Assembly (NCBI GenBank): GCA_045105775.1
Contig: JBGCDW010000054.1
Span: 27,559-51,558 of the forward strand
DNA from: Aureispira sp.
GTDB taxonomy: Bacteria > Bacteroidota > Bacteroidia > Chitinophagales > Saprospiraceae
Length of the DNA: 24,000 nt
Direction: 5' to 3'
A program made the translations under genes and the position numbers. Every line of letters begins with the position of its first letter. Positions within the stretch are counted from its first letter, which is position 1. Shown here one piece after another: positions 3,065 through 24,000 of the stretch. A model generated the notes under the pieces. The model searched no databases and was not told where the DNA came from. It saw nothing but the letters and a program-made list of their open reading frames with translations.

Positions 3065-3589
3065 CTATTTCTTGAATGAAATAGACATGCTAGAACCTTT
3101 AGCCATTTCTTCGATGTTCATTCCCTCTGTGCCTCTTAGTGCATCTGGGTACTTTTCTTTTACTTGTGCTAAGATTTCCTCTGCGGTCATAGAAACCGTG
3201 AATTTGTCTCCACTTACTTCAGAAATAGTAAGATCAACATCCACTTTTTCGCCTTCCATATCACCACTTAGATTCAATTTTGAACCATCAAAGGTGTAAT
3301 TCATCTCTTCTGTTTTTTCTTCTCCTACTTTAGAAAGAATGACCTTACCAGCTTCTGTAAACTCGATGGTAACATCGTCTGATTGTTCTTCACCTTGCTT
3401 CACTAAGCCATCTTTTTGGCCTTCTACCATAGCTTTCATAGGTGCAGGCACCCCATCTCCCAATACTAAGTCCAAAGAGCTTAGATCTACATGCCACTTA
3501 CCTACTAGTCCAGCACCCGATCCGCCACAAGAAACTATTAATAAAGCAGCAATAGAAACAATTGTTAATAATTTGAATACACTTTTCAT
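3065..3589 (-). CDS. Small lipoprotein of unknown function
   Basis: N-terminus MKSVFKLLTIVSIAALLIVSCGGSG is a signal peptide with a lipobox (I-V-S-C). The mature part is acidic and Lys-rich with a GKW motif near the N-terminus, which is lipocalin-like in flavour. No family assignment is possible by eye. Confidence 0.7.
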   Translation of the reverse strand: MKSVFKLLTIVSIAALLIVSCGGSGAGLVGKWHVDLSSLDLVLGDGVPAPMKAMVEGQKDGLVKQGEEQSDDVTIEFTEAGKVILSKVGEEKTEEMNYTFDGSKLNLSGDMEGEKVDVDLTISEVSGDKFTVSMTAEEILAQVKEKYPDALRGTEGMNIEEMAKGSSMSISFKK

Positions 3590-8378: not shown

Positions 8379-8828
8379 ATGATCAACGCCACTGAGCAAG
8401 CCTATTTGAGTAAATTATTGGCCGAGTCCGAGCAACAATTTCGTTACTATCTGACGATGGCTGCTGTTATCATTATTTTAAGCTGGGGTTTGTACTTTGC
8501 CTTGCGCCGTCCAGGGGCGATGATTATTGCCCTTATTTTGTCTGTGGGCTTGTGGTATTATCCTTGGCGTTATTTTCAGAAAGCGCAACTCTTGCGTTTA
8601 GATTTAGAAGAACAGGAAAAAATTACCCTTACAACCACTATTTATGATAAAAAAATTAGTAAAATCAATCGTTTACAACCCTATTATTATTGCTATACCG
8701 ATGAAGAGGATTTTGAAGTGAATCAAGCCCTTTACAACAGCATTCAAGTACCACAACAAGCCACGATTACCTACGCCCCCAACTCTGGCACCATCCTTCA
8801 CATTGCTCCAGCCAACGCTCCTTCTTAA
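8379..8828 (+). CDS. Hypothetical membrane protein (two predicted TM helices)
   Basis: Hydrophobic spans YYLTMAAVIIILSWGLYFAL and AMIIALILSVGLWYYPW. Its stop overlaps the next start (TAATG at 8826-8830), suggesting translational coupling. No recognisable family. Confidence 0.5.
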   Translation: MINATEQAYLSKLLAESEQQFRYYLTMAAVIIILSWGLYFALRRPGAMIIALILSVGLWYYPWRYFQKAQLLRLDLEEQEKITLTTTIYDKKISKINRLQPYYYCYTDEEDFEVNQALYNSIQVPQQATITYAPNSGTILHIAPANAPS

Positions 8829-11161: not shown

Positions 11162-11596
11162 CTATTCCACTTCATACTTCTCAAGCAGCCCTCGATACTC
11201 CTCCTTAAAATCTGTTCTACGGTGATGCGCATGTTGATTCTTAATGCAATTCATAACAACATCTACTTGATGTCGATTAACAGAAAAAGCCCCATAACCA
11301 TTCTGCCAAAAAAAATGAGCAAGGCTTTCATCATTCGTCGTCATCCGCTTAGAGGAATAAGACGTTACCTTTTGAACTAAAGTCATCAAAGGTATCTTTT
11401 GAGACAATCGGCACAAAATATGAATATGGTCAACATACCCTCCAACAATTAACGCAGGACACTCATAATCCTGACAAATCCGTGCCATATAAGCATGTAA
11501 GTCTTGTTCATAAGGAACATAAATAAGAGCTTCTCGATACTTTGTACTAAAGGCAATGTGAATATAATTTTGCACGAGTGACTGTCCCATAGTCAT
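11162..11596 (-). CDS. IS200/IS605-type Y1 (HUH) transposase-like protein, RAYT-like and solo (no tnpB, no IS ends recognised)
   Basis: N-terminal block NYIHIAFSTKYREALI, HUH motif DHIHIL (H57-I58-H59), WQNGYGAFSV, and the C-terminal block CIKNQHAHHRRTDFKEEY. In the family this block reads Y-I-x-N-Q-x-x-H-H; here position 117 is Cys. Confidence 0.8.
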   Translation of the reverse strand: MTMGQSLVQNYIHIAFSTKYREALIYVPYEQDLHAYMARICQDYECPALIVGGYVDHIHILCRLSQKIPLMTLVQKVTSYSSKRMTTNDESLAHFFWQNGYGAFSVNRHQVDVVMNCIKNQHAHHRRTDFKEEYRGLLEKYEVE

Positions 11597-11818: not shown

Positions 11819-14800
11819 ATGTGGAATCATAGACCACTTTTACTACTTGGCCTTTTAGCTGCTTTACTCACTCTTGGAAGCACCCTAACTGCCCAAGTTA
11901 CCTTAACAGTAAGAATAACCAGTGGAAGCTCTACCACCACTTGTACAGATGGTTTTTTTGGCGGTGCGCCAGAACCACACTGGCGGGTAGAAATAGATGG
12001 ACAAGGTTACACCACCTACCCCAGACGTGGACTTTGTTTTACCAATGCTCCCAATACACAATATTCCGAAGTATTTAATTGTAGCAATCGTTATCCCGTT
12101 GACTTGCCTATTTGCCTAAGAGCATTTGAAGACGATGGTGGAGCCTGTATTGTAAATGAAAGTTGCTTGGAACAAATCTGCCAAAATTTTGCCACGCCTG
12201 CCCCAGGAAACACCCTCAATTACACCCTCTCTGTCAATGGTTCCAGTTCGGCCACGGTCAACTTTAGCATCACTGCCACAGGAAGTTTCAATCTCCCAGG
12301 AGCCGCTTACAATACGATTTGTAATGCCGTAAACTTGGGCACACTCAATTCTAGCAGCACCATTGGCAATAGCAATTTGAGTAATTATGGTAATTTTTGT
12401 GCAGACAATCTAGGGGAGCCTAATCCTTGGGGCAACAACAACGATCAAGGCGTTTGGTTTCAATTTACCACCAGTGCCAGCCCTGCTGCGGTCATTGATA
12501 TAGAAGCAGAAAGCGATCCACAAAACATTGGTAATGATATAGATTTACAAATAGCCATTTACGAATCCAGCAATGGTACTTGTTCGGGCACCCTCAGCCT
12601 ATTAGAAGACAGTTACACAGGTTTTGGATTGCTCAATGATGAAGATTTATCGGTCAATTGTCTACAACCCAATACCACCTATTTTATTCTAGTAGATGGA
12701 GAAAGAACAAACCTTATTAACAATGGCGGACAAGAAGGATTTTTTGGTTTACAAATCGTAGATGCAGGCGTATTGCAAGCAGCCGATGAAATTTGTGATG
12801 CAGAATTCTTAGGGCTAGTTCCTGCTGGTGGTGCTGTAGCCACCCCCAATCTTAGCCGTTCCAATGTTTGTGCCACCAACACCAATGACCCCAATCCAGG
12901 GGCATGGGCTTCGGATCAAACCGTTTGGTTTCGTTTCCAAGCTCCCCCTACAGGACATGTTATTATAGAAGCAGATAGCGACCCCTTACTCCCCTTATCC
13001 AATGATCCTATTGATTTACAATTAGCCCTTTATGGTACAAATAACAATACTTGTACAGGCACCTTAGATTTTATTGCCTCAGAATACACCCCTGGTTTAT
13101 TTGGAGAAGACCTTGATGTGCGTTGTCTCACCCCAGGGCAAAATTACTGGATTTTGGTAGATGGTTCCCCACTCAATGTCGATGGTATTTTTGATATAAC
13201 GGTACGAGATGGCGGTATTCCACCTGCCCCCAATGACTTGAGTTGTGATGCCATTCCATTGGGCGCACCGGGCAATGGCGGAACCGTAGGTCTCAACAAT
13301 CAAAACAATTACTGTGCGGACAACATTTTTGAGCCCATTCCCAGCAATTGGGGAAATGACCAAGGTGTTTGGTATACCTTTATTGCACCACCTTCGGGTA
13401 AGGTCGAAGTTCGCTTGGACAATGGCAATATTATCACAGGTGATAACATAGATTTGCAAGTAGCTGTATACGATCTTACGGGAGCTGTTTGTACAGGAGT
13501 ACCCAATGAAATACGCTCCCAGCACAATGGTATTGGAATACTATGGGATGAAACCATGGAAGTAGAATGCCTAGAGCCAGGGCGTGAATATTGGATTTTG
13601 GTAGATGGGGAAGGTTCTTTGATTGATCCTGACCTACAAGAAGGCACCTTTGATATTGAAGTCTTTGGCGATCCGCGCGATTTGGCCTCGCCTTATGATG
13701 CCCCTTGCAATGCCTTGGCATTGGGCGATCCTACTGGAGGTTCTATAGGCACCAGCCCCATTACCAACCACGGCTCGCAAAATAATTTCTGCGCCGATGC
13801 CGCAGGTGAACCCCAACCCTCAGGTTTTACAGCCGATCAAACGGTTTGGTATACCTTTGTCGCGCCTTCTACGGGAAATGTCAACATTGATTTGAACTCG
13901 GATGCTGTTCTCGGAGGCGTTGATCCTATCAATTTGCAAATTGCCGTGTGGGAAAGCCCCAGTTGTAATGGGCCTTGGCGCGAGGAAGTGAGTGGTGACG
14001 ATTTGATTTATGATGTGGATTTGGATGTTTTCTGTCTTACGCCAGGACAAGTGTATTATGTGCAAGTAGATGGAGCTCCCCCTGCAATTTTGGGTGGCGA
14101 AGAGGGGTATTTTGATCTTACCATTTCAGAAATTCCTTCTATTCCAGTGGCACCCAATGATTCTATTTGTAATGCCATTGCCTTGGGCAATCCCTTTGCA
14201 GGAACCGTGGGAGTGACCAATCAACAAAATTTATGTGCCGATGATTTGGGTGATCCCAATCCTTCGGCCTTTGGCACCGATCAAACCGTTTGGTACAGCT
14301 TTACCACACCAGCCACAGGCGGGCCTTTTGCGGTAGATATTGATGCCAACTCTAGTTTGCCTTGGCCTTTTGGCAATAGAGATGCCATTGATTTACAAAT
14401 TGCTGTTTTTCAGTCTAGTAATAACACCTGTACAGGCGTACTGACCGAAGTAGAAAGCAGCTATTCGCTTCTAGATTTATTTGACGAGCAATTGAATGTG
14501 GCTTGCTTAGAAGAAAATCGAACCTATTTTGTAATGGTAGATGGATCTTTCTTGGACGTACAAGGCTACTTTGATATTTCTATATCTGCCGCTACCCCTG
14601 TTCCCATTCCAACCAATGACCTTATTTGTCAACACGAAGATTTGGGCACCGTACCTATTGGCGGAAGCCTAAACAACGGGGTCAATTATTACAATTTTTG
14701 TGCTGATGTAGAACCTGGTGAGCCGAGTCCTTTTGGCATTGAACAAACGGTGTGGTTCTCATTTATTGCCCCCAACCACCCTGGCCTCAATGCTACAGCC

Positions 14801-17800
14801 AATGTGACCATTTCGGTAGAGTCTGACCCTGCCAATGTGGGCAACAGTGTGGATTTGCAATTGGCGGTTTATGAATCGAGTAATAATACTTGTACGGGTG
14901 CCATGACTCTATTGGAAGAGGGCTCGGACGATCCTACTTTTAGTTTTGATGCAGAAGTCAATGTAACCTGTCTCTACCCTGGTAGACGATATTGGGTACA
15001 AGTAGATGGTTCTATTATCAACCAAGAAGGCTATTTCCAAATAGAAGTAGAAGACGATGGGGCTGGTTTCCGTCCGCCTTATAATTTAATTTGTAATGCC
15101 GAGCCTCTAGGGGTTGTTCCCAATGGTGGAAACATCAACAATGGGGTCAATTATACCAATTTATGTTCGGATACAGAACCTGGTGAACCCAATCCCAATG
15201 CCTTTTCTATTGACAAAACCGTGTGGTTTACCTTTACGGCTCCTGCCTCTGGTAATGTTACCATCAATGCAGAAAATGACCCCAACAACATTGGTGACGA
15301 AATTGATTTACAATTGGCCTTGTATTACTCGGTCAACAATACCTGCTCTGGCCCTTTCTTAGAAGTAGATAGCGATCATGATATTTTTAATAAAGATGAA
15401 TCCCTAACCGTAGATTGCTTGGAAGGAGGTCGTTTATATTTCTTGCAAGTAGATGGCTCCAATGGAGCATTTGGGGATGAAGATGGATGGTTTACCCTCG
15501 AAGTGACAGATGATGGTGGAACCAGTAGCTTCCCTTACAACAACAATATATGTGCTGCACGCAATTTTGGAATACCACTCGCTCCACAAACCCTCAACAA
15601 TGAATCCAATGAATGTGCAAATGTAGAGTTAGGCGAACCAGGAGCAGGCAGTTATGCCACCCACACCGTTTGGTACGAATTTGTAGCGCCCCCTTCTGGA
15701 CGCGTAGAAATTGAGGTGACTTCTAGTAATATTTTCTTAGGAATGGATCCTGAAGTACGCCTGTTTTCTTCTAGTAATAATACGTGTACAGGCAATTTAT
15801 CCCAAATCGAACGTTCCAACTTACCTACTGCACTGATTCCAGAGAATATTGAGGCCAATTGCTTAATCCCAGGCAACACCTATTTCATTCAAGTAGATGG
15901 CTCTGGTTTGGTCATTGAGGGGCAATTTAACATTACCATCGAAGCCATCTTCCCCAATTATGGGACAGGGCTGGCAGGCGACCCAGAACCAAGCAACAAT
16001 GCTTGTGATAGTGCAATTACATTAGCGGTTCAGTCACAATCTTGCCTCAATGCTTCGGGCACCTTTACCAATCTCAATTATGGCTATCCCACCATCACTT
16101 ACAATCCTGCCTTTGCACAAGGCTGTGGAGGCAATTGTGGGGCTACTTGGTATCAATTTACCATGCCTGCTTCGGGCAATGCTGTTATTGAAGGCAATGA
16201 TGATAATATTGGTGGGGGAATTATTGGAGATTTCTCTGATTTGGTCGTGGCCGCGTATACAGGTACTTGTAACAACCTCACGCCTATTGATTGTGACCAA
16301 GGTGGCTTCACCAGCGATGTTTCCTTCCAAGTAGCCGCCGCTCCAGGCACCACTATTTGGCTGCAAGTGTTTAATGATGATGGTGATGACGAAGGCGAAG
16401 AATACCAATTGTGTATTTCCGAAGGTTGTGGTTTTGATGATTGTTTGAATGCTTTGGCTGTGCCCATGCTGCCCAATGTGCCTTACTGTTTTAATACAGC
16501 AGGAGCCAATGGCGAAGATGTAGCAGGCGGAAGTGCGGGCTATTTTGAATGTTCAGAAGGTGACAACCCCGAAAACTCCGTTTATTATTACTTTGTATCC
16601 GATTGTAATGGTAGCGATGTGACCTTAAGCGTCATCAATGCCGTTTCTAATGGTAATTGTATTTTGGGTATTACCCCTACCGATGGTTTTAATATTTCTT
16701 TGTTCCAAGATGCAACGCCTTGTGATAACAACCCCGATACCTTGGTAGATTGCCAGACCTTTACATCCTGTGATGTACAACCCGTCAACTGGTCACAAAC
16801 CTACACAGGACTCTCACCCAACACCCCTTATATCATTCAAATTGATGGTGGTTTTGGTGCCTTAGGTGGTGACAATGTGGGTGAAATTATGATTACAACT
16901 ACCACCGACCCTGTCGTCGCTCCTGTTTCTACGCCACTCTCTTGTTCTGGGTTGAATAATGGAACCGCTTCGGCAGTTACACAGGGAGGTGTTGGCCCTT
17001 TCACCTTCTTATGGAGCAACAACAGTACAGATTCTACCGCCACCAACCTAGCCGCAGGTACTTATTTTGTTACTGTTACAGGTAGTAATGGTTGTTTTGA
17101 TACCGCTAGTGTAGTGGTAGGCAATAGCACGCCTTTGATCGCCACTATTACCAATGCCTCGGATGCTACTTGTGGTAATAATTGCAATGGACAAGCTTCC
17201 GTAACTGCTTTGGGAGGTTCTGTAGCAACCAATTATACCTATTTGTGGAATGATCCCAATGCCCAAACTACGGCTACTGCTACCAATTTATGTGCAGGAA
17301 CATACACCGTGACGGTTTATGATGATAATGCTTGTTTTGATACCACTAGTGTAGTCATTAATGCTCCACCTCCTATCCTTATTCAAGTAGATTCTATTAG
17401 AAATATTGCTTGTGGGGGTACTTGTGATGGGCAAATTAGCTTGTCTGCTTCTGGTGGAACGGCTCCTAATGGTTATCAATACAATTGGTCTACAGGAGCA
17501 ACAACGGCACAAATCAGCAACTTATGTGCGGGCAATTATACCGTTACTGTAGCAGATGATAACGGCTGTACAGATACCTTAACCATTGTATTAACGCAGC
17601 CTAGCAGTGTCACACTGGCCTTGACCCAACAAAGTAATATTGATTGTAATGGAGATAGTACAGGCAGCATTGCTGTTATTGCCAACAATGGAACACCCAA
17701 TTATACCTATAATTTATACAACAATACAGGATTGCTCTCCAGCAACACCACAGGAAGTTTTGGTAATTTACCTGCTCAAGCTTATGGTATTTTGGTGCAA

Positions 17801-20800
17801 GATGACTTAGGTTGTACCGATTCTATTGCGGTAGTATTGACCGAGCCACTGGCATTGACACTTAACTTGGTAAGTTCTAGCAATAGCAGTTGTTTTGGAG
17901 CCAATGACGGTGCTATTACGGTACAAGGCAATGGAGGAACAGCTCCTTATAGTTATGCTTTGGATGGTATTAATTTTAGTGTTAATAATGCCTTTAATAA
18001 CCTAGTAGCTGGTTCTTATACCATAACCGTCCGCGACAGCCTCAATTGTAACACAACTCTTGCACTCAATCTTACCGAACCAGCCGCAATTGTTCTCACC
18101 AACAACAACCAAACAAATGCGAGTTGTGGGGCTTGTGATGGTACCGCTACGGTGGGTGCTAGTGGTGGCGCGGGTTCATTTAGTTATCTTTGGACAAGTG
18201 GCGAAACCACCCCAACAGCTACGGCTTTGTGTGCTGGAAATAATACGGTAACTGTAACCGATGCCAATGGCTGTACCGCTACCGCTGCTTTTATTATTGG
18301 TAATGCTAGTGGATTTACGGCTAGTGCCAGTATAGATCAAGCTATTAGTTGTTTTGGCAATTGCAATGGTGCCGTAAGTATAGATGCACCTACTGGTGGA
18401 GGCAGTTTTACCACACTCTGGAATACAGGAGCTACAACAGATAGCATTAATAACTTATGTGCAGGTAACTATACCGCTACTGTCACAGATGCCAATGGCT
18501 GTTTTGTTATTCAAACCATCAATTTGGTAGCCCCCGACAGCCTCACGGCTCTTGCAGCTACTTTGCAAGATGTTTCTTGTGTAGGCAATACAGATGGGCA
18601 AGCTACGGTGACTATTAATGGCGGTACAGGGCCTTACACTATTTTGTGGGATGATAACAACGCCAATGCTACCAATACGGCCCTAACGGCAGGGCTACAC
18701 ACAGTGACCGTTACCGATGCAAGAGGGTGTGTGGCTACGGCTAGTACCACTATTGGCAGTCCAACACCACTCAACATTAGCATACAAAACACCACCGCCT
18801 CCAATTGTGGCACCTCAGGCTGTGATGGCACGGCTACCGTTGTGGTAACAGGCGGCCAAGGCTCTTATACCTACTTGTGGAATAATGGCAACACCAGTCC
18901 TACTCCTAATGATTTGTGCCCCAACTTCAATGGCGTTACCGTAACCGATGCCAACGGCTGTACGATTACGGCTAGTGTACTCATTCCAGCCAACAGTTCG
19001 CTCAATCTAAGCCTTAGCAACTCAACCGAACCAAGTTGCCACCGTGCTTGTGATGGCAGCCTAACGGTGGTTGCTGCTGGGGGAAATAACAGCAGCCCTT
19101 ATACCTTCCAATGGGATGATCCTAGCAACCAAAATACCGCTACAGCCAGCAACTTATGTGCAGGAACATATCGAGTAACCGTTAGTGATATTGATGGCTG
19201 TACAGCAGCAGCAGCCTTTACATTGGGGCAGCCCGACAGCATAACCATAAACTTAAGCCCAACAGCCGCGAGTTGTGCTGGGGTTAATAATGGTCGTATC
19301 AGCAGCCTAGCACAAGGAGGCACCATTCCTTACAGCTATCAGTGGAGTTCGGGAGCGACTACAGCTACCCTATCCAATGTTGGAGCAGGCAATTACACCC
19401 TAACGCTTACCGATGCCAATGGCTGTACGGCTATTGCCAATGCTGCTGTATTGGATGCAGATTCGCTGATTACCAATACTAATATTCCTACGCCTTATAA
19501 TGGCCAGCAAATTTCCTGTGCCAATGGCAATGATGGACAAGCTTCTGTCACGGTTACAGGGGGCACCGCTCCTTATAGCTATTTGTGGATTAATGGAGAC
19601 ACAACAGCCACAACTACAGGTTTGCAAGCCAGCACCTATCCTATTACCATCACCGATGCCAATGGCTGCTCTACAATAGATAGTGTTACGCTCATGCATC
19701 CTCCTCAAATTATAGCCAACACACAAATCATTTCTTCTTACAATGGTTATAATACCAGTTGTTATAGTAGCAATGATGGGGTTATTGTTGCGACAGCAAC
19801 AGGGGGCACAGGCAGTTATACTTATCTCTGGTCGGATGGCCAAACAGGAGATACAGCCACGGCACTCAATGGCGGTACTTATGCCCTAACGGTTACAGAC
19901 ATCAATGGATGTTTTATTGTGGTTACCGATTCCCTCACCGCCCCTGATCGTTTGGAAGATACGATTGTGATCAGCCAAACGGTAAGTTGCTTTGGGGGCA
20001 ATGATGGCAATGCAACCGTTATTCCAACAGGTGGTATTGCCCCTTACACTTATACTTGGAGTACAGGAAGCACAACGGCCACTGCTAACAACTTGGCTTT
20101 GGGCTGGCACTATGTTACAATTACGGATCTTAATACCTGCTTCTTGATAGACAGTGTTTATATAACCGAACCAGATGCGATTGAACCCAATTTGAGTGCA
20201 ACCCCAATCAATTGTGCCAATAGTGCGGATGGCTCGGCTACCGCCACAGCAACAGGAGGAACCGCACCCTATCAATTCTTATGGTCTAATAATGGGACTA
20301 CAGCTACCATTAATAATTTAACAGCAGGAACCTATGTGGTTACAATTACTGATGATAATTCTTGTACCATCGTAGATAGTATTGTGGTTGCTGCACCTAC
20401 AGCTATAATTGCAACCGCCCAACAAACACAAGCCATTAGTTGCCCTGTAACAGCCGATGCAGCCGCTACGGCTACCGCCACAGGAGGCACGATTCCCTAT
20501 CGTTTCGTGTGGTCTACAGGGGCCACTACAGCCACCATTCAGACCCTAACGGCAGGCAGCTATCAAGTGACCATTACTGATAATAATGGCTGTTCGGATA
20601 CGGCTAGTATAGTGATTAGTGATCCAGCACCATTACAGGTAACAGTTGCCGCAGATTTGATTTATAATGGGCAAGCTATTAGTTGTGCAGGGGCTGTTGA
20701 TGGGCAAGCGACAGTTACAGCTACAGGCGGCACGGGTTCGTACACCTATTTGTGGCCCGATGGACAAACCACTGCTACGGCTACAGGCTTAGGCCCTCAA

Positions 20801-22798
20801 CTGTATTGGGTATCTGTTACCGATGCCAATGGCTGTTCGGACACCGCTCAAGTACAATTGGCTGCACCAACTCCCTTACAAGGATCGGCCAGTGTTACGG
20901 GTACGATTGATTGTGCTGGGGGCAATGATGGCAGTGCAGCAGCGACCGCCTCAGGGGGCACCCTTCCTTATAGTTATGCTTGGAGTACAGGCGACACCAC
21001 TGCCACAACGACAACCTTGACGGTAGGCAGCCACCAAGTTACCATTACAGATGCCAATGGCTGTTCAGTCACGGCTAGTGTCAACTTGGGCGAACCCAAT
21101 CCAATTGTGCTCATTAGTTCAGCGACTAATGTGAGTTGTTTTGGGGGCAATAATGGTACAGCCAATGTCATTGCTCAAGCAGGCACCTTGCCCTATTCTT
21201 ACTTGTGGTCCAATGGCCAAACAAACAGTACAGCCACAACACTAACGGCTGGCATCCATTATGTCACAGTTACCGATGCCAATGGTTGTTCTCAAATAGA
21301 TTCTCAACTCATCACACAACCTAGCCCAATTGCCATTACATTTAGTAATATCATTGATATTGATTGTGTTAACCATCTAACAGGCACTGCGACAGCTACT
21401 GTAACGGGAGGAGTGGGTGTTTATCGTTACCAATGGAATGGAGTCCCCAATGCTACGGCTACGGCCACCAACCTACTGTATGGTTGGAATGAATTGGTCG
21501 TCTCGGATGCCAATGGTTGCACACAGTTGGATTCGGTCTTTATCAATACGCCCAATCCTATGACCACCACTGCTATTGGTTTAGATGCAGGTTGTTTTGG
21601 GGCTACAGATGGTGAAGGAGCCGTAACCGTTGCAGGCGGAACACCCCCCTATCAATACTTGTGGTCTACAGGAGCGACCAGCTCTGCTATCAACAATTTA
21701 GGAGCAGGTATTTATACCGTCACGGTTACAGATAGTATAGGTTGCTTTACAATAGAAACGGTTGTAATTGGTCAAAATGATCCTTTACAAGCTTTATTCT
21801 CACAGGTCACTGCACCTGATTGTAATAATGGAACAGAAGGTTCTATTACGGCCATTGTACAAGGAGGTTTGTCGCCTTACCAATTCATTTGGAGCACAGG
21901 GCAGCAGCTTATTGATAGCAGTACTTCTACGATTAATAATCTTGGAGCGGGCAACTATTTCTTGACCATTACCGATCAAGAAAATTGTTCTACCACCTTG
22001 GATACAAGCATTCTTGATCCTGCACGTTTGTCAGCTACGGCCAAAGGTTCTAGGTTGCAATGTTTTGGAGATAGTAGTGGTACGATCACAGTGGTCGCTT
22101 CTGGAGGAACAGCCCCCTACTTCTACAGCTTGAACGGCGGGCCTATTCAAAGCAGTGGCAGCTTTACCAACCTAAGCGCAGGTGCATACAATATTGTGGT
22201 GAATGATGCTGGAGGTTGTATATTTACAACTTCTGCAGCCGTTACACAAGCTGATTCGGTGCTACTAGATGTTACAGCTGACCAAAGTATTCGATTTGGA
22301 GAAACCGTTCAATTGTATGTTCGTTTACCCATCAACGCGCCCATCAATCCTGTCATTACTTGGACACCAGCCAATGGATTGAGTTGTACCAATTGTTTCC
22401 AGCCTATTGCACAGCCTTCGCGCTCTACTTTGTATACGGTAACGGTGACAGGAGATAATGGTTGTATCAGTACAGCCGATGTTTTTGTGGAGGTGGATAA
22501 TGATAAAGGGGTATTTGTACCTGATGCTTTTTCTCCCAATGGCGACCGCACCAATGATGTATTTATGCTGTACAGTGCTGGATCCGTAGAAGCTATTGAA
22601 GAATTTATGATCTTTGATCGTTGGGGCGAATTGGTTTGCTTGCACAACAATGTACAACCCAATTATCCAGCTTATGGTTGGGATGGCACCTTCTTGGGCC
22701 AACCTCTGAATGCAGGCGTATTTATTTACTACATCAAGGTGCGTTACTTTGATGGTACCACAGAGATTCTCAAAGGGGATGTGACCTTGATCCGATAA
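11819..22798 (+). CDS. Giant (3,659-aa) T9SS-secreted cell-surface protein, SprB-repeat adhesin-like
   Basis: One uninterrupted ORF. It has an N-terminal signal peptide (MWNHRPLLLLGLLAALLTLGSTLTAQ), a modular repeat body and a type-B T9SS C-terminal domain; sub-features are listed separately. A near-consensus -7 box CAACTTTG lies at 11785-11792. Confidence 0.9.
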   Translation: MWNHRPLLLLGLLAALLTLGSTLTAQVTLTVRITSGSSTTTCTDGFFGGAPEPHWRVEIDGQGYTTYPRRGLCFTNAPNTQYSEVFNCSNRYPVDLPICLRAFEDDGGACIVNESCLEQICQNFATPAPGNTLNYTLSVNGSSSATVNFSITATGSFNLPGAAYNTICNAVNLGTLNSSSTIGNSNLSNYGNFCADNLGEPNPWGNNNDQGVWFQFTTSASPAAVIDIEAESDPQNIGNDIDLQIAIYESSNGTCSGTLSLLEDSYTGFGLLNDEDLSVNCLQPNTTYFILVDGERTNLINNGGQEGFFGLQIVDAGVLQAADEICDAEFLGLVPAGGAVATPNLSRSNVCATNTNDPNPGAWASDQTVWFRFQAPPTGHVIIEADSDPLLPLSNDPIDLQLALYGTNNNTCTGTLDFIASEYTPGLFGEDLDVRCLTPGQNYWILVDGSPLNVDGIFDITVRDGGIPPAPNDLSCDAIPLGAPGNGGTVGLNNQNNYCADNIFEPIPSNWGNDQGVWYTFIAPPSGKVEVRLDNGNIITGDNIDLQVAVYDLTGAVCTGVPNEIRSQHNGIGILWDETMEVECLEPGREYWILVDGEGSLIDPDLQEGTFDIEVFGDPRDLASPYDAPCNALALGDPTGGSIGTSPITNHGSQNNFCADAAGEPQPSGFTADQTVWYTFVAPSTGNVNIDLNSDAVLGGVDPINLQIAVWESPSCNGPWREEVSGDDLIYDVDLDVFCLTPGQVYYVQVDGAPPAILGGEEGYFDLTISEIPSIPVAPNDSICNAIALGNPFAGTVGVTNQQNLCADDLGDPNPSAFGTDQTVWYSFTTPATGGPFAVDIDANSSLPWPFGNRDAIDLQIAVFQSSNNTCTGVLTEVESSYSLLDLFDEQLNVACLEENRTYFVMVDGSFLDVQGYFDISISAATPVPIPTNDLICQHEDLGTVPIGGSLNNGVNYYNFCADVEPGEPSPFGIEQTVWFSFIAPNHPGLNATANVTISVESDPANVGNSVDLQLAVYESSNNTCTGAMTLLEEGSDDPTFSFDAEVNVTCLYPGRRYWVQVDGSIINQEGYFQIEVEDDGAGFRPPYNLICNAEPLGVVPNGGNINNGVNYTNLCSDTEPGEPNPNAFSIDKTVWFTFTAPASGNVTINAENDPNNIGDEIDLQLALYYSVNNTCSGPFLEVDSDHDIFNKDESLTVDCLEGGRLYFLQVDGSNGAFGDEDGWFTLEVTDDGGTSSFPYNNNICAARNFGIPLAPQTLNNESNECANVELGEPGAGSYATHTVWYEFVAPPSGRVEIEVTSSNIFLGMDPEVRLFSSSNNTCTGNLSQIERSNLPTALIPENIEANCLIPGNTYFIQVDGSGLVIEGQFNITIEAIFPNYGTGLAGDPEPSNNACDSAITLAVQSQSCLNASGTFTNLNYGYPTITYNPAFAQGCGGNCGATWYQFTMPASGNAVIEGNDDNIGGGIIGDFSDLVVAAYTGTCNNLTPIDCDQGGFTSDVSFQVAAAPGTTIWLQVFNDDGDDEGEEYQLCISEGCGFDDCLNALAVPMLPNVPYCFNTAGANGEDVAGGSAGYFECSEGDNPENSVYYYFVSDCNGSDVTLSVINAVSNGNCILGITPTDGFNISLFQDATPCDNNPDTLVDCQTFTSCDVQPVNWSQTYTGLSPNTPYIIQIDGGFGALGGDNVGEIMITTTTDPVVAPVSTPLSCSGLNNGTASAVTQGGVGPFTFLWSNNSTDSTATNLAAGTYFVTVTGSNGCFDTASVVVGNSTPLIATITNASDATCGNNCNGQASVTALGGSVATNYTYLWNDPNAQTTATATNLCAGTYTVTVYDDNACFDTTSVVINAPPPILIQVDSIRNIACGGTCDGQISLSASGGTAPNGYQYNWSTGATTAQISNLCAGNYTVTVADDNGCTDTLTIVLTQPSSVTLALTQQSNIDCNGDSTGSIAVIANNGTPNYTYNLYNNTGLLSSNTTGSFGNLPAQAYGILVQDDLGCTDSIAVVLTEPLALTLNLVSSSNSSCFGANDGAITVQGNGGTAPYSYALDGINFSVNNAFNNLVAGSYTITVRDSLNCNTTLALNLTEPAAIVLTNNNQTNASCGACDGTATVGASGGAGSFSYLWTSGETTPTATALCAGNNTVTVTDANGCTATAAFIIGNASGFTASASIDQAISCFGNCNGAVSIDAPTGGGSFTTLWNTGATTDSINNLCAGNYTATVTDANGCFVIQTINLVAPDSLTALAATLQDVSCVGNTDGQATVTINGGTGPYTILWDDNNANATNTALTAGLHTVTVTDARGCVATASTTIGSPTPLNISIQNTTASNCGTSGCDGTATVVVTGGQGSYTYLWNNGNTSPTPNDLCPNFNGVTVTDANGCTITASVLIPANSSLNLSLSNSTEPSCHRACDGSLTVVAAGGNNSSPYTFQWDDPSNQNTATASNLCAGTYRVTVSDIDGCTAAAAFTLGQPDSITINLSPTAASCAGVNNGRISSLAQGGTIPYSYQWSSGATTATLSNVGAGNYTLTLTDANGCTAIANAAVLDADSLITNTNIPTPYNGQQISCANGNDGQASVTVTGGTAPYSYLWINGDTTATTTGLQASTYPITITDANGCSTIDSVTLMHPPQIIANTQIISSYNGYNTSCYSSNDGVIVATATGGTGSYTYLWSDGQTGDTATALNGGTYALTVTDINGCFIVVTDSLTAPDRLEDTIVISQTVSCFGGNDGNATVIPTGGIAPYTYTWSTGSTTATANNLALGWHYVTITDLNTCFLIDSVYITEPDAIEPNLSATPINCANSADGSATATATGGTAPYQFLWSNNGTTATINNLTAGTYVVTITDDNSCTIVDSIVVAAPTAIIATAQQTQAISCPVTADAAATATATGGTIPYRFVWSTGATTATIQTLTAGSYQVTITDNNGCSDTASIVISDPAPLQVTVAADLIYNGQAISCAGAVDGQATVTATGGTGSYTYLWPDGQTTATATGLGPQLYWVSVTDANGCSDTAQVQLAAPTPLQGSASVTGTIDCAGGNDGSAAATASGGTLPYSYAWSTGDTTATTTTLTVGSHQVTITDANGCSVTASVNLGEPNPIVLISSATNVSCFGGNNGTANVIAQAGTLPYSYLWSNGQTNSTATTLTAGIHYVTVTDANGCSQIDSQLITQPSPIAITFSNIIDIDCVNHLTGTATATVTGGVGVYRYQWNGVPNATATATNLLYGWNELVVSDANGCTQLDSVFINTPNPMTTTAIGLDAGCFGATDGEGAVTVAGGTPPYQYLWSTGATSSAINNLGAGIYTVTVTDSIGCFTIETVVIGQNDPLQALFSQVTAPDCNNGTEGSITAIVQGGLSPYQFIWSTGQQLIDSSTSTINNLGAGNYFLTITDQENCSTTLDTSILDPARLSATAKGSRLQCFGDSSGTITVVASGGTAPYFYSLNGGPIQSSGSFTNLSAGAYNIVVNDAGGCIFTTSAAVTQADSVLLDVTADQSIRFGETVQLYVRLPINAPINPVITWTPANGLSCTNCFQPIAQPSRSTLYTVTVTGDNGCISTADVFVEVDNDKGVFVPDAFSPNGDRTNDVFMLYSAGSVEAIEEFMIFDRWGELVCLHNNVQPNYPAYGWDGTFLGQPLNAGVFIYYIKVRYFDGTTEILKGDVTLIR
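11897..12316 (+). other. Unique Cys-rich N-terminal head domain (aa ~27-166) of the giant protein; family unknown
   Basis: VTLTVRITSGSSTTTCTDGFFGGAPEPHWRVEIDGQGY...CLRAFEDDGGACIVNESCLEQICQNF... contains 8 Cys and is not repeated elsewhere in the ORF. Confidence 0.5.
12320..16906 (+). repeat. Tandem array of 10 ~146-158-aa four-cysteine modules (8 canonical, 2 degenerate), coding
   Basis: The first conserved Cys of each module falls at aa 168, 326, 476, 630, 784, 937, 1092, 1245, 1396 and 1542 (nt 12320, 12794, 13244, 13706, 14168, 14627, 15092, 15551, 16004, 16442). Recurrent blocks are C-[ND]-A-x-x-L-G, N-x-C-A-D...E-P-x-P, DQTVW[FY]xFxAPxSGxVxI, IDLQ[IL]A[VIL]Y.S.NNTCTG, V.CL.PG..Y[FW][IV].VDG and G.F.I.V. 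Confidence 0.8.
16934..22258 (+). repeat. 23 tandem SprB-type repeats (~77 aa each), coding
   Basis: Each unit follows the pattern C-x-G-x-x-[DN]-G-x-[AI]-x-V-x-x-x-G-G-x-x-P-Y-x-Y-x-W-[SN]-x-G-x-T-x-x-x-x-x-x-L-x-A-G-x-Y-x-V-T-[VI]-T-D-x-N-G-C. I counted 23 units by eye from SCSGLNNG (aa 1709) to LQCFGDSSG. Confidence 0.85.
22511..22795 (+). other. T9SS type-B C-terminal sorting domain (gliding-motility-associated C-terminal domain, TIGR04131-like), preceded by an Ig-like module (22262-22510)
   Basis: VFVPDAFSPNGDRTNDVFMLY...MIFDRWGELVC...GWDGTFLGQPLNAGVFIYYIKV...LKGDVTLIR matches the conserved blocks of the type-B CTD (P-x-A-F-S-P-N-G-D-x-x-N-D, I-F-[ND]-R-W-G, W-D-G, G-x-Y-x-Y, G-x-V-x-L-I-R). 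Confidence 0.85.
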
Positions 22799-22875
22799 AC
22801 ACACAGATAATTATTATATATATTAATGGTTATCACAAAATAAAAACCATCAACATCATCAACATGTGGGTGGCG

Positions 22876-22912
22876 CGGCAGTACAAAACACGTTTTTTGT
22901 GCTGCCGTTTTT
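22876..22912 (+). terminator. Rho-independent terminator of the giant gene
   Basis: 13-bp stem CGGCAGTACAAAA (22876-22888) / TTTTGTGCTGCCG (22895-22907) with one G-U pair, a 6-nt loop, then TTTTT (22908-22912). It sits 78 nt after the stop. Confidence 0.75.
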
Positions 22913-23068
22913 GTATAACTAAGCATAAGCATCTAGTTTTGCCAGCCTTGATATCACCAATACAATAAATTGCTTAGAAGTTTTTCCTCCAACCATTATT
23001 CGCCTATTCTAAGCTTATTTCAACAATACAATAATGAAAAAATGTTTCAAAACGGAATCAAATCCGCC

Positions 23069-23102
23069 CTTTGTTTTCATTTTGAAAACAAAGTTCTTTT
23101 TT
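23069..23102 (+). terminator. Orphan terminator-like hairpin in the gene-free spacer
   Basis: Perfect 10-bp stem CTTTGTTTTC (23069-23078) / GAAAACAAAG (23084-23093) with loop ATTTT, followed by TTCTTTTTT. No annotated gene ends here. Confidence 0.4.
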
Positions 23103-23263
23103 AAAAATTCATAAAACATTAACCATCATTCATTCTTCATTTTTGGCACTTTATTGGCATAGTGTAAAGCAACTTAACAAGTAAATAACTAAAAATTGAG
23201 TTTTATTGGGAAGTAAAATTCAATGGAAAGATAATAAATTTGGGTTTTAATTGGGGTGATTAA

Positions 23264-23295
23264 AGACTTAGAAAGTCGGGAAGCTTTCTAAGTCT
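23264..23295. repeat. Hairpin A of a twin-hairpin pair (12-bp perfect stem, loop TCGGGAAG)
   Basis: AGACTTAGAAAG (23264-23275) / CTTTCTAAGTCT (23284-23295). Confidence 0.5.
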
Positions 23296-23321
23296 AACTT
23301 CAAAAAATCCAAACAAATTTT

Positions 23322-23367
23322 AAAAAAAGATCTAAAAAGTCGGGAAACTTTTTAGATCTTTTTTTTT
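23322..23367. terminator. Hairpin B of the twin pair (12-bp perfect stem, loop TCGGGAAA) flanked by A-run and T-run; bidirectional terminator-like
   Basis: AGATCTAAAAAG (23328-23339) / CTTTTTAGATCT (23348-23359). An A-run at 23322-23327 and a T-run from 23360 extend the stem. Confidence 0.5.
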
Positions 23368-23509
23368 GTCCCTATTCCAACTGTAAATTTTCAGCTTTTT
23401 AACTACTTCCTAATAAATACCAGTCCCCTACAACTGGTGAATTATCTTTACATTAGTTATACGTACTGTTTTTATAAAAATCTAACTTGTACTTTTAGCT
23501 CAAAAAACT

Positions 23510-23517
23510 TACTTTTG
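23510..23517 (+). promoter_or_regulatory. Candidate Bacteroidota -7 box TACTTTTG with a TTG 20 nt upstream
   Basis: Exact TAnnTTTG match 39 nt upstream of ATG 23556. CTTG at 23486-23489 is at plausible -33 spacing. Confidence 0.4.
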
Positions 23518-23555
23518 GAGACATCATTATCTGACCCCAACGTACACTCTATTCC

Positions 23556-24000
23556 ATGAAAGTATTTTTTCTCTCCTTTTGTTTATTAATTATTGCCACA
23601 ATCACCCAAGCACAGCAAGAGCCTGTCTTGGACACCGTAGCCGTGCTCAACGCCCAAAAAGCACTAGAAGAAGCAGAAATTTTGTATAGCATAGAACATA
23701 TCAATTATGCCAAGGCTGCCCTAGAATTGAGTGTACTGTACATGCAAGTGCCTGATTTGGTATATGAATGGGAAGACATTGCTTTAGAATCCTTGTCCAA
23801 AATTCGACAAGAAGAAGGGGCAGAAAGCAGTGTTTACAAAGCATCTATTGCCAAGCTTCCCAAGCCACTCGATCAGCTATTTGATAGCCAATTGGCACTA
23901 GAAGAAGCCGAAGCCACTAAAAACGAAAACCCTGCTTTGTACGTCGAAAAGCTTTTCTGGCGAGCCAAGATTTTTATAGACAATGATGATTTAGAATCTT
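23556..24000 (+). CDS. Secreted hypothetical protein, 5' portion (runs off the right edge); possibly helical-repeat
   Basis: This ORF is not in the supplied track. I translated it by hand: ATG 23556 gives MKVFFLSFCLLIIATITQAQQEPVLDTVAVLNAQKALEEAEILYSIEHINYAKAALELS... It has a clear signal peptide and the frame stays open to position 24000. Confidence 0.6.
   Translation, partial: MKVFFLSFCLLIIATITQAQQEPVLDTVAVLNAQKALEEAEILYSIEHINYAKAALELSVLYMQVPDLVYEWEDIALESLSKIRQEEGAESSVYKASIAKLPKPLDQLFDSQLALEEAEATKNENPALYVEKLFWRAKIFIDNDDLES

Follow-up and report, generated by a model that had tools for sequence, protein, structure and literature searches.

A ten-module array related to PF23759 in the N-terminal head of a giant type IX secretion cargo of Aureispira sp.

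A giant secreted protein and its ten-module array

The stretch of Aureispira sp. DNA analysed here (24,000 nucleotides (nt) of contig JBGCDW010000054.1, positions 27,559 to 51,558; hereafter the window) carries on its forward strand, at 11819..22798, a 10,980-nt open reading frame (ORF) for a protein of 3,659 amino acids (aa), recognized from the ORF list, its translation and its Pfam and NCBIfam matches. From the N- to the C-terminus, the product consists of a signal peptide, a C2-like cap, ten modules resembling pre-peptidase C-terminal (PPC) and galactose-binding domains (GBD), a stalk of SprB repeats and a type B sorting domain of the type IX secretion system (T9SS). The signal peptide (aa 1-25, 11819..11893) is evident as a hydrophobic N-terminus, and its predicted cleavage makes Gln26 the first mature residue. 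Proteins of Bacteroidota commonly follow a Q-rule, by which a Gln occupies the mature N-terminus after removal of the signal peptide. The cap (aa 26-161, 136 aa, 11894..12301) was recognized by its predicted fold, structural matches and conservation. It is followed by eight canonical four-cysteine modules (aa 162-1389, 12302..15985), by two divergent modules that extend to position 16906, and by the stalk (16907..22513), which is made of 23 SprB immunoglobulin-like (Ig-like) repeats (PF13573, E 7.7e-181, 23 stretches) and a terminal Ig-like domain with a BiPBP_C-like match. The sorting domain closes the protein at 22514..22795 (CHU_C, PF13585, 43.2 bits; TIGR04131, 42.6 bits). The repeats and the two sorting-domain matches confirm that the protein is a T9SS cargo, as had been proposed in the initial annotation, which was made from the sequence alone. 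Pfam and NCBIfam scans of the giant protein revealed neither a peptidase nor any other catalytic domain. Public records have no entry identical to the 3,659-aa protein, and an orthologue found there is named only 'T9SS type B sorting domain-containing protein'. In these records some 40 % of the giant protein lacks domain annotation, and the same holds for thousands of T9SS cargos related to it.

The same annotation had described ten modules at 12320-16906, eight of them well conserved and two degenerate, with a period of 146-158 aa and four Cys in fixed positions. These features were all recovered. The first Cys of the successive modules lies at aa 168, 326, 476, 630, 784, 937, 1092, 1245, 1396 and 1542, giving spacings of 158, 150, 154, 154, 153, 155, 153, 151 and 146 aa, and these positions map onto the proposed interval. 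The eight canonical modules occupy 12302-12775, 12776-13225, 13226-13687, 13688-14149, 14150-14608, 14609-15073, 15074-15532 and 15533-15985, and are 40-46 % identical to one another when the eight are aligned. In the numbering of module 5, C7, C29, C94 and C119 are invariant among them, as are W48, F51, Y126 and V130-D131-G132. The sequence motifs listed for the modules were found again, apart from minor departures: module 6 has C-Q-H, module 8 C-A-A, module 2 C-A-T and module 7 C-S-D. A phmmer search with module 5 retrieved the other seven canonical copies at E 1e-25 to 1e-33 but modules 9 and 10 only at E 6.5e-3 and 0.22, respectively. The repetition is well above anything that chance would give.

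Module 9 (aa 1390-1535, 15986..16423) is divergent, has extra Cys and, judging from hidden Markov model (HMM) scores, is the copy nearest to the classical members of the Pfam family PF23759; an HMM built from PF23759-like domains gives it 58.8 bits. Module 10 (aa 1536-1696, 16424..16906) is the most degenerate copy, Cys-rich and conserved as the last module ahead of the stalk. Alone it is marginal in such comparisons (about 7-8 bits). However, orthologues of module 10 were found in 16 proteins, and their alignment matched that of the canonical modules with an hhalign probability of 95.7 % (95-96.5 % over the canonical and PF23759-like sets). Sequence comparison thus places modules 9 and 10 as true, divergent members of the array. 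Tandem Repeats Finder detected no DNA-level tandem repeat of ~460 nt in the window, so that the module copies must be old and not the product of a recent expansion. Consecutive modules are joined by Pro-rich linkers of 5-8 residues ending in a P-N-D motif that opens each module, and the N-D motif at the module start is conserved (70 % and 84 %) among 509 near-full-length homologous domains.

Family, cysteines and predicted fold of the modules

According to the initial annotation, the modules belonged to no assigned family and might represent an undescribed domain. This was partly true of the modules taken one by one: none of the canonical copies scored above cut-off against Pfam or NCBIfam, the best values being 23.5 bits for PPC (PF04151, gathering cut-off 25.9 bits) and 16.1 bits for PF23759 (GBD_T9SS_assoc, cut-off 27 bits). 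Of the eight canonical copies, only modules 4, 5, 7 and 8 had any PF23759 match, none above 16.1 bits; module 9 alone reached 21.8 bits, also below cut-off, and module 10 alone had no PF23759 match. An NCBIfam scan of the N-terminal head was likewise without match, and one orthologue (P0003) had no PF23759 match at E 1e-3. However, when aa 1-1696 were taken as a whole, both families passed their cut-offs, PF23759 with 55.4 bits (E 9.1e-15; best stretch aa 1393-1461, in module 9) and PPC with 39.9 bits. In a set of 61 diverse relatives, 12 have a PF23759 match (best 1.4e-20) and 8 a PPC match.

To compare profiles, the alignment of the eight canonical modules (A1), which also served for structure prediction, was set against a retrieved relative, P0081, that is itself a PF23759 array (873.9 bits, 16 full-length stretches). 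A1 matched 15 copies of P0081 with an hhalign probability of 98.4 % (E 7.8e-15, 126 columns), whereas column-shuffled controls gave 0.1-0.4 %, and it matched a broader set of 31 PF23759-like sequences with 99.9 % (E 6.9e-32, 137 columns). Conversely, an HMM of the P0081 copies found nine of the ten window modules at E 8e-13 to 4e-5, module 10 being marginal (E 0.011). Searches of the PDB by sequence with the profiles A1 and A2 returned noise and a marginal PPC match (2luw, E 0.069), and those with the stalk and P0081 nothing relevant. Taken together, the whole-region scores, the Pfam matches of the relatives and the hhalign results indicate that the modules form a divergent subfamily of PF23759, itself allied to PPC, rather than a new fold or superfamily. 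The idea of a domain undescribed at the family level is therefore abandoned. By the annotation's own criterion, a full-module match to a characterized family at E below 1e-10 would remove the novelty; E-values of this order were obtained profile against profile and over full length, while single modules fail in Pfam and PF23759 is an uncharacterized family, for which our literature searches (on PF23759, and on PPC together with T9SS) found no paper. The placement nevertheless supplies a seed alignment from which a subfamily model can be built.

The window modules share with PF23759 the N-D-x-x-C-x-A opening, the W-[YF]-x-F and Y-x-x-x-V-x-G strands, one Cys pair (C1-C3), the arrangement in tandem arrays and the association with T9SS sorting domains. 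They differ in that the canonical copies are 20-30 aa longer, carry an E-P-x-P loop and have a second Cys pair, located in N-x-C-A-D and V-x-C-L-x-P-G. The order of their core blocks fits positions 2-70 of the PPC profile; however, compared with PPC domains and the collagen-binding domain of the clostridial collagenase ColG, they have ~45 extra N-terminal residues, two predicted disulfides and a tenfold arrangement. The weak PPC scores (39.9 bits for the whole region and up to 23.5 bits per module, the latter covering profile positions 3-68 of 70) could be taken to mean that the modules are classical PPC domains, which assist secretion or folding and are cleaved off during the maturation of a secreted enzyme. 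We consider this extremely unlikely, and the absence of any enzyme domain from the protein led us to reject such a prodomain role. Besides, PPC domains lie C-terminal to a peptidase whereas the array is N-terminal, it is repeated ten times with each copy conserved according to its position, and it is the T9SS C-terminal domain, not the modules, that directs export.

The distribution of the cysteines gives a further indication of how the subfamily is related to PF23759. Exactly four Cys are present in 297 of the 509 domains, and the second commonest pattern is C1 and C3 alone. The presence or absence of C1 and C3 co-varies (r = 0.72), as does that of C2 and C4 (r = 0.68). From this co-occurrence we infer that each module has two disulfides, C1-C3 and C2-C4. 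As the C1-C3 pair is also seen in classical PF23759 sequences, it is probably ancestral, while C2-C4 would mark the subfamily of the window modules. The four-Cys pattern, which had been considered foreign to the PPC signature, would thus be half ancestral and half a mark of the subfamily.

The initial annotation had also guessed, from the order of the sequence blocks, at a PPC-type beta-sandwich, and this guess was borne out by structure prediction. For module 5, AlphaFold2 (AF2) run on A1 predicted a nine-stranded beta-sandwich of the jelly-roll type, with a predicted local distance difference test (pLDDT) score of 85 and a predicted template modelling (pTM) score of 0.83. The best Foldseek match in the PDB was the C-terminal domain of the Clostridium perfringens enterotoxin (C-CPE; 7kp4_B, 2.8e-5, TM-score 0.45-0.50), followed by the collagen-binding domain of ColG (1nqd_A, 1e-4, target-normalised TM-score 0.63), and the next matches were Eph ligand-binding domains, the meprin MAM domain and CBM6. 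Each of these structures falls into the galactose-binding-like or PPC jelly-roll class, and the module is accordingly modelled as a jelly-roll of this type. AF2, Foldseek and the sorting domain together thus point to a galactose-binding-like fold within a T9SS cargo, as in PF23759. C-CPE is a stand-alone receptor-binding beta-sandwich, but its resemblance to the modules is at the level of the fold only: sequence identity is 11-15 %, which amounts to no sequence similarity, and C-CPE is the single such domain of a pore-forming toxin. With the ColG domain the modules share the jelly-roll class and the N-D motif at the junction of linker and domain, although no collagen-binding residues were identified in them. 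At the corresponding junction of ColG, chelation of Ca2+ makes the tandem domains stiffer.

The cap and the head as a unit

The cap lies outside the interval originally described, but it is architecturally coupled to the module array. AF2 predicted it as an eight-stranded domain with a pLDDT of 94.8, and its 50 best Foldseek matches are almost all C2 domains, led by those of Notch ligands, cPLA2, perforin and E-Syt (E 1.2e-4 to 1e-2, TM-score 0.45-0.56). On this model the cap is a C2-like beta-sandwich. No Pfam family matched it at E up to 10, so that neither C2 nor MNNL was found by sequence. The C2 domains of Notch ligands (the MNNL domain of Jagged and DLL) are, like the cap in its predicted fold, extracellular and disulfide-bearing. 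However, the cap differs from these and from the C2 domains of cPLA2 and perforin in being bacterial, in its seven conserved Cys and in having no sequence-family match.

Among the 150 top-scoring proteins with modules, 72 have one copy of the cap, always N-terminal and directly after the signal peptide, and 78 have modules without it. The first mature Gln (Q1) is invariant in the 31 caps aligned (31/31), and a conserved F-E-D-D-G loop is present. The Cys of the window cap are at aa 42, 73, 88, 99, 110, 116 and 121 of the protein, and exactly seven Cys occur in 58 of 60 cap homologues. As this number is odd, one Cys must be without a partner inside the domain; this residue may remain free, form an intermolecular bond or connect the cap to another domain. 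Together with the fixed architecture of the head, this seven-Cys C2-like cap is among the more novel by-products of the analysis.

A word-indexed homologue search with a single module returned only two fragments, and the distribution of the family was therefore established by an exhaustive HMM search over 1.84 billion representatives of 50 %-identity clusters. This search found 6,214 cluster representatives at E 1e-3, 1,908 at 1e-10 and 342 at 1e-30. Module copies number 2-20 in many of the matching proteins, and the partner domains are SprB with CHU_C, HYR and Por_Secre_tail. In a search with a 615-aa segment, the closest genomes were metagenome-assembled genomes (MAGs) of uncultured Aureispira (96 % identity) and those of other Saprospiraceae, while more distant copies were seen in Fluviicola.

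In six homologues (P0003-P0007 and P0011), modules at the same position as in the window are 45-83 % identical to the window copy, whereas those at other positions are 31-57 % identical. The modules therefore keep positional orthology, with no sign of concerted evolution. The shortest homologue has 1,865 aa and the longest 4,547 aa, and the length of the SprB stalk varies more than two-fold. Positional orthology and this variable length show that the head behaves as a fixed unit, composed of the cap, eight canonical and two divergent modules, on a stalk that is free to vary. A shorter class of ~1,150 aa (P0074, P0085 and ~40 others) recurs in Saprospiraceae MAGs and consists of a signal peptide, a cap, two modules, 3-5 SprB repeats and CHU_C; it looks like a class of short paralogues with the same head design.

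Possible function of the head and gene neighbourhood

We consider it rather probable, by analogy with proteins of known function, that the cap and modules form an adhesive or binding head, disulfide-stapled and probably stiffened by Ca2+, on a SprB-type stalk. The protein would be exported by the T9SS and held on the outer membrane by its type B C-terminal domain; since this anchors the C-terminus, the cap and modules would be the distal end and would point away from the cell. Each module would be locked by its two disulfides, of which C1-C3 is common to classical PF23759 and C2-C4 specific to the subfamily, and the Pro-rich linkers ending in P-N-D are probably stiffened by Ca2+ as in the clostridial collagen-binding domains. 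The head could then offer a multivalent binding surface for the substratum or for another cell, in a gliding, Aureispira-like bacterium with a predatory cultured relative. An adhesive head is favoured because the relatives of the fold are binding modules and because giant T9SS substrates of Aureispira act in gliding and prey capture. PPC-containing segments are reported to bind collagen (PMC6168687), and a strain of Aureispira in culture depends on giant T9SS substrates both for gliding (SprB) and for the Ca2+-dependent capture of prey (GhpA) (bioRxiv 10.1101/2024.01.29.577165). Such substrates being known contact organs for gliding and predation, the architecture of the head says where ligand specificity should be sought. 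It also leads to specific predictions, namely the C1-C3/C2-C4 disulfide map, a Ca2+-dependent stiffening at the P-N-D junctions and a head of fixed composition with a C2-like tip.

Two observations weigh against an adhesive role of the modules. No ligand, binding site or Ca2+ site has been demonstrated, and the residues conserved among the eight canonical copies (Cys, Trp, Phe, Tyr, Gly and VDG) look like those of a structural core and less like a shared surface site. Conservation of this type fits a scaffold equally well. The modules could indeed be purely structural spacers, forming a rigid rod stabilised by disulfides and Ca2+ that only extends the stalk and presents the cap as the sole binding element. 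The short, Pro-rich linkers, the fixed number and order of modules across homologues and the constant position of the cap at the extreme N-terminus are consistent with this, as is the fact that the C2 fold class is known for binding Ca2+ and membranes. However, the relatives of the module fold (the ColG domain, C-CPE, Eph ligand-binding domains and CBM6) are typically binding modules, the copies remain distinct in sequence according to their place in the array, which points to surfaces specific to each position, and more than half of the top family members have modules with no cap to present. We regard the spacer role as unlikely, although it is the main rival of the adhesive head.

A more specific version of the adhesive head is that the cap, the eight canonical and the two divergent modules together act as a device for capture, conserved in Saprospiraceae of ixotrophic or gliding habit and in their relatives. 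The C2-like tip would, in a Ca2+-dependent manner, engage the envelope of prey or of neighbouring cells, or their membrane lipids, the seventh, unpaired Cys would serve for covalent or oligomeric linkage, and the PPC-like modules would add multivalent, position-specific contacts. This reading is speculative and we hold it to be improbable; if true, it would establish a second type of appendage for prey contact or adhesion beside the GhpA grappling hooks.

We also considered whether the protein could itself be a prey-capture appendage of the GhpA type, with the module array as the hook. Both proteins come from Aureispira or a close relative of it, and they follow the same logic of a signal peptide, an N-terminal head of ~1,400-1,700 aa, a stem of Ig-like repeats and a T9SS C-terminal domain. 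However, GhpA is described as having an Antigen I/II-like hook and a heptameric stem, with PorP and PorE genes downstream of its own (bioRxiv 10.1101/2024.01.29.577165). Set against this description, the predicted fold of the window modules is PPC-like, and GhpA, with 5,898 aa and 52 Ig-like repeats, is larger than the present protein, with 3,659 aa and 23 SprB repeats. No gene similar to PorP/SprF or PorE was seen adjacent to the giant gene, the truncated gene downstream not having been searched against family libraries. In addition, sequence searches with the stalk and the modules matched no solved chain. Identity with GhpA is therefore very unlikely and was rejected from the fold, neighbouring genes and size given in the published description, not from a sequence alignment. 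The protein also resembles SprB of Flavobacterium johnsoniae. Both are giant T9SS type B cargos of gliding lineages, with many SprB-type repeats followed by the sorting domain. However, no sprF-like gene was seen next to the giant gene, and its product is about half as long as SprB.

Upstream of the giant gene lie an IS200-like transposase gene and a DEAD-box helicase gene, the other neighbours being housekeeping genes. The transposase, of the Y1 type (11162-11596, reverse strand; PF01797, E 3e-22), is 220 nt upstream of the giant gene and on the opposite strand; in Aureispira, insertion elements have been reported to toggle the predation phenotype (bioRxiv 10.1101/2024.01.29.577165). Two ORFs among the housekeeping genes (8379-8828, forward strand, 149 aa; 3065-3589, reverse strand, 174 aa) had no Pfam match at E 1e-3, and scanning the window for Rfam families and tRNA genes gave no hit. 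Downstream of the giant gene (in 22799-24000), ~750 nt of AT-rich DNA (34 % GC) are free of ORFs, and a truncated ORF then begins at 23556 on the forward strand; it encodes a signal-peptide protein that starts with MKVFFLSFCLLIIATITQAQQ.

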